Notes: generated by a model from the sequence alone, not told the origin. A stretch of DNA of 20,000 bases from Raillietiella orientalis (GCA_036172245.1 JAYWIR010000056.1:801748-821747); one strand, 5' to 3'; positions 7,801 through 9,892 are shown, counted from the first letter of the stretch. A program made the numbers and translations.

Positions 7801-9892
7801 GTAAGACGTTCACTTACAAAGCTACTTACAAATTTAAGGCATAAATGTGTTTTCAGTTACCACATGCGTTGCTACCTCAACTTAATAGAGATATAATGGA
7901 ATAGAGATGTAATGGGGTGTTCATTCCGTAGGTTTTATTTTGCAGATTAACACATATTCAAAAAACGCTTTACCAAGAATATTTGAGTTCAAGTGATATC
8001 AAAAAAACCCTGCAAGGAAATTTGCAAATATTCGTTCCGTTGACACAGTTAAGAAAAATATGTAATCATCCATGCATTTTTCAAAGGAGAATTCAGGTAA
8101 TTTTCCGTAATAAGCTGAAACTAGTTTATGACTCCTCCTTTAGGTGGCAATACAGAAAAAAACTTTTTGGAAGAAATCGGGGAAAATGATTGTTCTTCAC
8201 AACTTATTGAAGATATGGAGAAAATGCAATCATCGTGCTCTAGTGTTTACTCAGAGCAGAAAAGTAAGTTGTATACGAACAATGTTCACATTCATTAATG
8301 TATGCTAACTGAAAATCATATCTGTAATATGTATTAGTCTGTATCAGATAAATGCATTGTGTTGTTAATGTGTGATACATTGTATGATATAACAAAGGTG
8401 TCCAAAATTAAACTGATTTTCTCTTTCCCTGCTGATGATACAACTTTTGGAAGCATATCTGCAGCAGTATGAGTACAGTTACCTAAAGATGGATGGAGAA
8501 ACAAATGTGAAGTCCAGATCAGGTTTAGTGAACTCATTTAATAAGGTACCAACTAATCATCAATGAAATAGTCGTTCTTTTCTTGGAATTTCAATGCATA
8601 TTGTGCAGTAATTCATGAAAAAGTTTTTATTTTTACATAGCTTTTCCTTATCTTAGGATGAATCCATTTTCATATTCTTATTGACAACAAGAGTTGGTGG
8701 ATTGGGAATCAATCTAACAGGAGCTGACAGAGTTTTAATTTATGATCCTGACTGGAACCCATCTACAGATAGTCAAGCTAGAGAAAGGTCTTGGCGTATT
8801 GGTCAACTAAAAAATGTGGTTATTTACAGGTTTGAATATTTGACCTTGAATATTTTGAGTAATTATACATAACTCTTTTTGTAGACTGATTTCTGCAGGA
8901 ACTATTGAAGAAAAAATTTACCATCGTCAAATTTTTAAACAATTTTTGATAAACAGAATCCTTCAGAATCCTTCTCAGAAACGTTTTTTTAAATTTAATG
9001 ATTTATTTGAACTTTTTACGTTTACTGATCCTGATAATGATACAGAAACTGGTATATGTTTACCCAAGATTTCTCATAAGTGTAAGTTTGATGAAGTACT
9101 TTATGCCTGCAAAGCTTTGCCATTTCAGATAATATCAAATCTGAATGTGTATCTCGAAAGCATAAAAACAAAAAGGTTGAAGGAAAACGGATTTGTTATG
9201 TGAGCAAAAGAAAATCACATGTTCTTCAAGATACTGACACTGCTGCTCAAGAAGAAACGTATATTATGAAGAAATTATTCAAAAAAACTGGTGAATCATG
9301 CTTGCCATCTGTAGCACTCGAGGTGTTAATTTTACTGTGAAATCTCTTACAGAACTCGTTTCCTTTGTGGAACACAGTGCACTTGAAGCAGATTCGAGTG
9401 CCGATTACAAATTGATTGAGGCTGAAGCTGAACGAGTAGCACAAGAAGCAGCCAAGTCTCTAAAGCAGGCAAATTTTGCTCATTCAGCTCCAAGGTAAAA
9501 AAGATGGCTGCTTTATCTGTTTGATGGAAGGAACTCCTTTTAGGTTGCGCATTCCAACAGATTCCAATCACGATTCGGAATTCCCTTCCTTGTCATCGAA
9601 GTCCCTTCTTGACAGTATTCGTAAAAGAAAATCATTGGTTAAGAGTAATTCAGTTGAAGAAGGCGTGCCATTATCTTTACAAGGATCTGGAGAAATTTTG
9701 GAAGATCTTAGAGCTTTCTTACTTAAAAATGAGAATTCAAACGGGTGCACAACGGATGCTCTCATAGGTTACTTCAAACAAAAACTACCAGCATCTAAAA
9801 CTCCTCTGTTCAAATCCCTTTTAAACCATTTATGTATTTTTCACAGATCTCAAGGTTATGGTATTTGGAAGTTAAAGGAGGAGTTCAGATGA
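1808..9892 (+). CDS. ERCC6: ERCC6/CSB (Rad26) SNF2-family DNA-dependent ATPase, transcription-coupled NER; 5'-partial, about 813 aa resolved
   Basis: Exons: 1808-1974, 4874-5009, 5078-5227, 5297-5424, 6895-7052, 7106-7303, 7346-7462, 7932-8096, 8144-8263, 8435-8545, 8657-8829, 8885-9051, 9129-9290, 9353-9494, 9544-9892. All phases are compatible. Translation gives an acidic tract, [31 protein letters not shown] (Walker A), [11 protein letters not shown] (Walker B), [90 protein letters not shown] and a C-terminal winged-helix/UBD ending [10 protein letters not shown]. Exon 1808-1974 is the least certain. The acceptor at 8433-8434 is TG. Confidence 0.96.
2270..4250 (+). mobile_element. Heavily decayed Bel/Pao-like LTR-retrotransposon pol relic in ERCC6 intron 1975-4873 (boundaries approximate)
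   Basis: Degenerate motifs in Bel/Pao order. One frame from 2648 reads FNLRK ... KVVSGK* ... ETFSYK ... [11 protein letters not shown] ... KCLQMVYAL (cf. GFNLRKW, KVLGxxW, DxFxF, TKRxILSxxA, KxxLQxLWxL). Then LHG (2958), GVTAS...GKGKVFL (~3357; cf. SRG...WxGPxFL), LDF (~3701) and LNSRP (3843, integrase). Many stops and frameshifts; no LTRs identified. Confidence 0.45.
6301..6322. repeat. (TC)11 microsatellite in ERCC6 intron
   Basis: Read directly: tctctctctctctctctctctc. Confidence 0.95.
7884..7915. repeat. 16-nt tandem duplication just upstream of an ERCC6 acceptor
   Basis: aatagagatataatgg followed by aatagagatgtaatgg (1 mismatch). Confidence 0.9.
8264..8434 (+). other. Putative non-canonical GT-TG intron of ERCC6
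   Basis: Donor aaa|gtaagt. Branch-like ctgat plus pyrimidine tract ttttctctttccct, then gcTG|atg ata caa. Splicing here restores [15 protein letters not shown] (human FSQSRQ-MLDILEVFL). Confidence 0.75.

Follow-up and report, generated by a model that had tools for sequence, protein, structure and literature searches.

An apparent GT-TG intron ahead of a conserved helicase exon of an ERCC6/CSB orthologue in Raillietiella orientalis

Introduction

Is a conserved exon of the ERCC6/CSB gene of Raillietiella orientalis joined to its neighbour through an intron that ends in TG, or does the assembled sequence carry one changed base at an ordinary AG acceptor? The question is raised by the dinucleotide at positions 8433-8434 of the window, by which we mean the whole stretch of 20,000 nucleotides that was analysed.

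TG acceptors have been verified in 36 human genes by Szafranski et al. 2007 (PMC2374985); among the cases described there, all were alternatives to an AG at most 28 nt away and none was ever the sole site. The RefSeq screen of that study gave 39 GT-TG introns among 171,605 unique human intron sites, 9 of them robust; among the reasons for failure in the others were a real AG hidden by a SNP, a RefSeq that no transcript supports, and misalignment (PMC2374985). According to the same source, human TG sites prefer a pyrimidine at -3 and a purine at +1, their contexts are no stronger than those of AG sites, and in human AG>TG mutants the neighbouring AGs were activated and the TG was unused (PMC2374985). 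For Drosophila melanogaster, 23 GT-TG introns, 13 of them in coding sequence, were reported among 60,223 introns of FlyBase R6.04, and GT-TG was the commonest non-canonical pair (PMC4528330 and its Table 3). A similar alternative splice, mostly canonical, was given for 22 of these 23 introns and RNA-seq junction support for 19, and in intron 6 of bifid the TG was the most used acceptor (PMC4528330). Sheth et al. described a GT-TG intron of ARS2 that is conserved between human and mouse (PMC1557818). As reported by Fu et al. 2011, an uninterrupted stretch of about 10-15 or more pyrimidines frees human 3′ sites from U2AF35 in assembly (PMC3105431).

Results

Assignment of the gene to ERCC6/CSB

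The exon model was built from the list of open reading frames together with the sequence. It covers the helicase core to the C-terminus, and the N-terminal exons, which lie upstream, were left out.

4874-9892, plus strand: ERCC6/CSB orthologue, helicase core and C-terminal part; 14 exons modelled, stop TGA at 9890-9892

Joining the 14 exons (4874-9892) gave 757 open codons without frameshift or stop. Human ERCC-6 chains were the top solved-structure matches for three single exons, ranking above Rad26, INO80, ISWI and CHD. Pfam family PF00176 (SNF2-rel_dom) was found in the exons at 6897-7052 (E 4e-11) and 7106-7303 (E 8e-19), and PF00271 (Helicase_C) in the exon at 8657-8830 (E 8e-13). A search of the protein collection with exon 7106-7303 returned 620 matches at E <= 0.001, of which the best 120 were used. 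Nearly all named proteins among these 120 were ERCC-6/ERCC6; the remaining names were generic (unnamed or hypothetical protein, SNF2 family), with one RAD54-like protein. The closest of the 120 was only 75% identical to the exon, indicating that the protein collection holds no near kin.

The C-terminal region was also of the ERCC6 type. Four homologues were compared with it by tblastn, and three of them (locust P0092, bivalve P0022 and scorpion P0040) matched 9617/9692-9889 at 37-46% identity; a C-terminal match of the spider homologue (P0020) was not found. No Pfam family scored on the C-terminal exon, and no match to this exon was obtained in the protein collection. By sequence comparison, the gene at 4874-9892 is thus assigned as an ERCC6/CSB orthologue, nearer to ERCC6 than to the other SNF2 subfamilies.

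Composition and neighbouring genes

The whole window is AT-rich (GC 0.28-0.44), and many of the ERCC6 introns are very short, at 42-77 nt. Short introns with weak pyrimidine tracts were seen at 7304-7345 (42 nt), 8097-8143 (47 nt), 9495-9543 (49 nt) and 7053-7105 (53 nt), adjoining introns of 469 and 1470 nt. Within the intron of 1470 nt, positions 6296-6327 (32 nt) form a pyrimidine microsatellite of the (TC)n type.

An ERCC1 orthologue was recognised on the minus strand at 17604-18267 (Pfam Rad10, E 2.6e-26), probably with more exons to about 18500. Two introns of this gene, at 18030-18072 and 17796-17843, have GT-AG ends and lengths of 43-48 nt. Two genes of nucleotide-excision repair thus stand close together here, ERCC1 being about 8 kb away from ERCC6 and on the other strand. 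Between them, a gene of the 5′-nucleotidase family (PF05761) occupies 10297-14700 on the minus strand and resembles homologues of 500-670 aa over most of its own length; six introns were placed in it, all GT-AG, a count that excludes the junction around 13937-13130. The region 15000-17000 has a GC content of 0.43, compared with about 0.30 around it, and contains a run of 14 C at 16757-16770. Pfam gave no match for four ORFs of 81-124 aa in this region, and no Rfam family was found there or in a scan of the window. A 125-aa open frame at 19347-19724 on the minus strand looked thioredoxin-like by eye, and no Pfam match was obtained for it at E <= 0.01.

Intron 8 and its TG end

The features around the eighth intron are listed below. 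The intron was placed from the sequence together with the exon model, and the donor, the branch-like motif and the pyrimidine run were read from the sequence.

8144-8263, plus strand: exon G, 40 codons, ending ...LVFTQSRK (helicase motif IV region); aligns to human ERCC-6 834-866
8264-8434, plus strand: intron 8, GT...TG, 171 nt, phase 0
8264-8269, plus strand: donor GTAAGT, full U2-type consensus
8413-8417, plus strand: branch-like CTGAT, A at 8416, 18 nt before the intron end
8417-8430, plus strand: pure pyrimidine run, 14 nt, uninterrupted
8433-8434, plus strand: terminal dinucleotide TG, with C at -3 and A at +1; at the position of the orthologues' AG, T8433 replaces A
8435-8545, plus strand: exon H, 37 codons (111 nt), ending ...FNK; aligns to human ERCC-6 867-903
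8452-8453, plus strand: first AG beyond the branch site, 19 nt after the TG; frameshift with the 8264 donor, stop TAA at 8484-8486
8462-8467, plus strand: CAGCAG, two in-frame AGs; use deletes 10 or 11 residues

The intron end reads ...aaactgattttctctttccctgcTG at 8434 and exon H opens with ATGATACAA at 8435, i.e. CTG/ATG, where the slash marks the boundary. One base separates this end from ...CCCTGCAG/A, the ordinary form of an acceptor. An additional in-frame TG is located 3 nt upstream, at 8430-8431, and its use would add one Leu. The TGA within the branch-like CTGAT (8414-8416) is a stop in the frame of exon H. A preliminary description of this DNA had noted that the intron opens with gtaagt at 8264 and ends with TG before an exon at 8435, and that AG is absent between the in-frame TGA and the exon; all three were seen again, with no AG in 8417-8434. 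It had further stated that the first downstream AG is out of phase and that the first in-frame CAG would delete 10 protein letters. Accordingly, the AG at 8452-8453 was found to lead to the TAA at 8484-8486, and the two in-frame AGs, which end at 8464 and 8467 (30 and 33 nt past the TG), cost 10 and 11 aa, respectively.

Of the features of U2-type TG sites, intron 8 has the U2-type donor (GTAAGT), a 14-nt pyrimidine run, a pyrimidine at -3 and a purine at +1. The pattern of an AG>TG acceptor variant is also present, the site being a single base off a good acceptor at a conserved intron position.

Other explanations of the dinucleotide were tried and rejected. U12-type introns have the donor consensus RTATCCTT and the branch motif TCCTTAAC close to the 3′ end. 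The donor of intron 8, GTAAGTTG, differs from the former and no motif like the latter was present, which excludes a U12-type intron; U12-type GT-TG introns do exist, with one in mouse (PMC1557818 Table 2). RNA editing that creates an AG at 8433-8434 was ruled out by reasoning, because known A-to-I editing cannot yield A from U. A hairpin between CUGCUG (8429-8434) and CAGCAG (8462-8467) did not exceed chance, 19 of 200 shuffles folding equally well (z -1.26). In the minimum-energy fold the CAGCAG at 8462-8467 pairs with its exact reverse complement, the CTGCTG that closes the intron.

Intron 8 compared with the other introns of the window

Twenty-one introns were annotated in the window: 13 in ERCC6 (plus strand), 6 in the 5′-nucleotidase-family gene (minus strand) and 2 in ERCC1 (minus strand). 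Twenty of them are GT-AG and one is GT-TG, indicating that the organism makes no general use of odd acceptors. Intron 8 has pyrimidines at 17 of the 20 nt before its terminal dinucleotide, the highest count of the 21 (next best 16). It also has the longest pure pyrimidine run (14 nt; next best 10), and its tract is the richest in C (7; next 6). The GTAAGT donor is found in 4 of the 21 introns, intron 8 included. For comparison, pyrimidine runs of at least 14 occur six times on the plus strand of the window, and 0.58% of 20-mers reach 17 pyrimidines.

Exon H is conserved from its first codon

Human ERCC-6 aligned without a gap across the two exons, the residues to 866 with the upstream exon and those from 867 with the downstream exon. 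Among the best 120 of the 620 homologues, 110 span the 8263/8435 junction and the other 10 do not reach it. The alignment was gapless within 15 residues on each side in 102 of these 110; in the other 8 the gaps lay elsewhere and never between positions 40 and 41. The first residue of exon H is Met in 109 of the 110, and in the M-L-x-I-L-E that follows the junction L was found in 103, I in 96, L in 93 and E in 97. The claim that the helix after SNF2 motif IV is conserved was therefore borne out, the MIQLLE stretch being near-invariant in the homologue alignment.

Alternative gene models were enumerated by combining every GT/GC donor in 8200-8419 with every AG acceptor in 8300-8529, with the frame kept open. 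This gave 45 open in-frame canonical pairs, and none of the 45 retained the MIQLLE stretch. Canonical GT/GC-AG gene models were rejected on this ground, all of them losing the near-invariant M-[LI]-x-[IL]-L-E. By alignment, 8263/8435 is the only join predicted to yield the orthologous protein. These results bear out the core of the preliminary description, that the conserved protein can be made only if the intron ends in TG or if 8433 is A, since 0 of 45 canonical pairs keep the helix.

The intron position in other loci

A metagenome scan with the exon after intron 8 gave 80 loci, and both flanking exons could be placed in 63 of them. The best locus was 86% identical in the neighbouring exon, indicating that no close relative is present among these loci. 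The two exons were contiguous, and the intron absent, in 38 of the 63, so the intron is missing from many eukaryote lineages. These 38, to which L001, L003 and L005 belong, include the loci most like the window in the neighbouring exon (86%). Ten of the 63 loci were flagged as split, and 8 of the ten had an intron exactly ahead of the Met codon; L028 and L071 were rejected as split-exon loci, being artefacts of partial alignments. For the last 15 the upstream exon was off the contig or unrecognised; 13 of these read AG/ATG after a pyrimidine tract and 2 continued as coding sequence.

Altogether, AG/ATG was found in 21 of the 21 metagenome loci that have the intron, which comprise 18 distinct sequences. 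A TG end was found in none of these 21 orthologous introns, which come from distant relatives (best 86% identical). The orthologous acceptor had been proposed earlier as a check on the TG, and in these distant loci it is uniformly AG. In L045, L072, L016 and L066 a CTGAT/CTAAC motif was present at a similar distance from the AG as in intron 8, and, measured from the branch site and from the Met codon, the TG of intron 8 takes the place of the orthologous AG. The position of intron 8 is, on this comparison of sequences, ancient. The coincidence of the human ERCC-6 866/867 boundary with the AG/ATG boundary in all 21 loci places the start of exon H at 8435. On the age of T8433 the metagenome loci are uninformative, because none of them is a close relative.

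Searches for reads, transcripts and same-species protein

A search of sequencing runs with 6890-9900 of the window found one DNA run (0.15 share of sampled words) and no RNA run. Contigs from that DNA run covered 7797-8067, 8492-8642 and 8947-9097; they were identical to the window, and position 8433 lies outside all three. The ORF over the acceptor (8417-8563) gave no near candidate in the protein collection, and a same-species fragment with L or Q at the acceptor codon was not found there with three queries. An exact 40-nt pattern had 0 matches in the prokaryote genome collection.

Discussion

The preliminary description had offered three explanations of the TG, a functional UG acceptor, a splice-damaging allele and an A>T assembly error. 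This list was right, and its members are weighed below by how probable we hold each to be, with a small remainder given to no reading.

We lean towards the reading that the working ERCC6 gene has CAG/ATG and that T8433 is either a carried variant allele or a base error, because, judging from published base rates, a TG hardly ever serves as the only acceptor. In every other signal the site looks like an ordinary strong acceptor, and sequence comparison shows the intron position to be old, with AG/ATG in 21 of 21 loci. The otherwise intact gene (757 open codons, Pfam matches) fits a young or non-fixed lesion. Moreover, an apparent GT-TG intron in genome sequence alone would, given the base rates, more often be a masked AG than a real TG acceptor. 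Of the two forms that a CAG/ATG gene could take here, an A>T splice-acceptor variant on the assembled haplotype is quite possible, at somewhat less than an even chance, and a miscalled base is unlikely. The variant allele is favoured over the base-call error because the coding sequence of three genes is clean; the modelled exons contain no frameshift or stop, by which an error is not favoured. On the other hand, the best tract of the 21 introns together with a consensus donor is what would be expected of a site selected to work without AG. A CAG/ATG gene gives no reason for the strong tract and donor, which would then be mere coincidence.

If the T copy is transcribed, the spliceosome would still be able to assemble on it, given the strong donor, the branch site and the pyrimidine run of 14 nt. 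The second step would then mostly take place at the next AG. Use of 8453 would give a frameshift with the stop at 8484-8486, and the message would probably be degraded; use of the AG at 8464 or 8467 would give a protein without the helix after motif IV. Splicing at the TG in such a copy would be a minority at most. Loss of CSB is recessive in people, and a carrier of the T allele would thus be healthy. This situation resembles disease-type AG>TG mutations, in which a single A>T falls on the invariant A of an otherwise normal acceptor in a conserved gene, and the use of neighbouring AGs is the shared expectation from the human mutants reported (PMC2374985). It is unlike them in that the A allele of intron 8 is deduced from orthologues only.

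A working TG acceptor appears rather unlikely. Here T8433 would be fixed, and the U2 spliceosome would join 8263/8435 (or 8432, with one added Leu) often enough to give sufficient normal CSB. The GTAAGT donor, together with the CTGAT branch site and the pyrimidine run of 14 nt, would carry an AG-independent assembly. The early-step AG may be the one 19 nt downstream, and the frameshifted by-product of splicing there may lower the dose. The TG stands exactly where the orthologues have AG relative to branch site and Met codon, the intron ranks first of 21 in tract strength and has a consensus donor, and ERCC6 carries no other damage, all of which argue for such a site. Like the human TG sites of GNAS, ARS2 and PCBP2, it has a GT donor, U2-type signals, a pyrimidine at -3, a purine at +1 and a CTG motif, with a canonical AG 19 nt away and so inside the reported range of 28 nt; the bases at -3 (C) and +1 (A) agree with the context described (PMC2374985). 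The pyrimidine stretch falls in the length class reported as free of U2AF35, although the AG-independent 3′ sites described there still end in AG, and what is independent in them is assembly of the spliceosome, not where the second step cuts (PMC3105431). D. melanogaster supplies an invertebrate precedent, bifid intron 6, in which the TG was the most used site (PMC4528330).

However, the known cases also differ from intron 8. Human TG sites alternate with a productive AG, whereas the AG partner of intron 8 (8452-8453), within about 28 nt as it is, shifts the frame, and the TG would be the sole productive site, which is unseen in the human screens reported (PMC2374985). At most 1 of the 23 fly introns described lacked a similar alternative, and intron 8 is without a productive one (PMC4528330). 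The human cases are supported by transcripts, with sequence error excluded, and 19 of the 23 fly introns by RNA-seq, whereas the TG of intron 8 is known here from the genome sequence alone (PMC2374985, PMC4528330). TG was found in 0 of 21 orthologous introns, none of them from a close relative. The strength of the surrounding signals is given modest weight only, because compensation is a post-hoc argument and the human TG sites described do not have stronger contexts (PMC2374985). A switch between TG and CAGCAG isoforms, as suggested earlier, is disfavoured: it would delete near-invariant residues (M in 109, L in 93 and E in 97 of 110 homologues), and at 30-33 nt the CAGCAG exceeds the 28-nt limit reported between human TG and AG sites (PMC2374985). 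In its specific form, with the TG as sole productive acceptor for a conserved essential-domain exon of ERCC6, a gene of transcription-coupled repair, and the AG 19 nt downstream as a dosage brake, the proposal is likewise rather doubtful.

A fixed lesion is less probable again, and indeed improbable. The species or lineage would carry T, and ERCC6 would be in the course of being lost or crippled, with transcripts that use AG 8453 (frameshift) or AG 8464/8467 (10-11 aa lost), or that skip the exon in frame (111 nt, 37 aa). In its favour, CSB is absent from some animal lineages. The activation of neighbouring AGs in the human AG>TG mutants described also speaks for it (PMC2374985). Against it, no second lesion was found in 757 codons, the motif regions align gapless and the C-terminal domain is still ERCC6-like. 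An old loss is unlikely, because it would have left further damage.

It is very unlikely that the gene follows some other, canonical model, such as one pairing donor 8268 with acceptor 8453 (...SRKVTYLQQ..., 5 residues shorter), which is GT-AG, in frame, open and of the type that automatic predictors would choose, but which, like the other enumerated pairs, loses the conserved helix, relies on weak sites (donor taa/GTTGTA and the purine-rich acceptor ...TTGGAAG/) and leaves the strong donor, branch site and pyrimidine tract unused.

On either side of the question, the site at 8433-8434 is of an already known kind, whether an acceptor changed from AG to TG or an intron of the GT-TG type. If T is a variant or an error, as we lean to think, predictors restricted to GT/GC-AG would give an ERCC6 protein that is truncated or lacks the helix behind motif IV, and for that reason the site is a useful check of the base accuracy or heterozygosity of the assembly. 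We know of no earlier case in which TG is the sole productive acceptor. In the published human and fly surveys almost none is reported (PMC2374985, PMC4528330). A sole productive TG, if true, would contradict the rule drawn from the human data that TG acceptors cannot act constitutively. If T is fixed and the TG is used, intron 8 of this ERCC6 gene would be a natural substrate for studying how the second-step site is chosen without AG.
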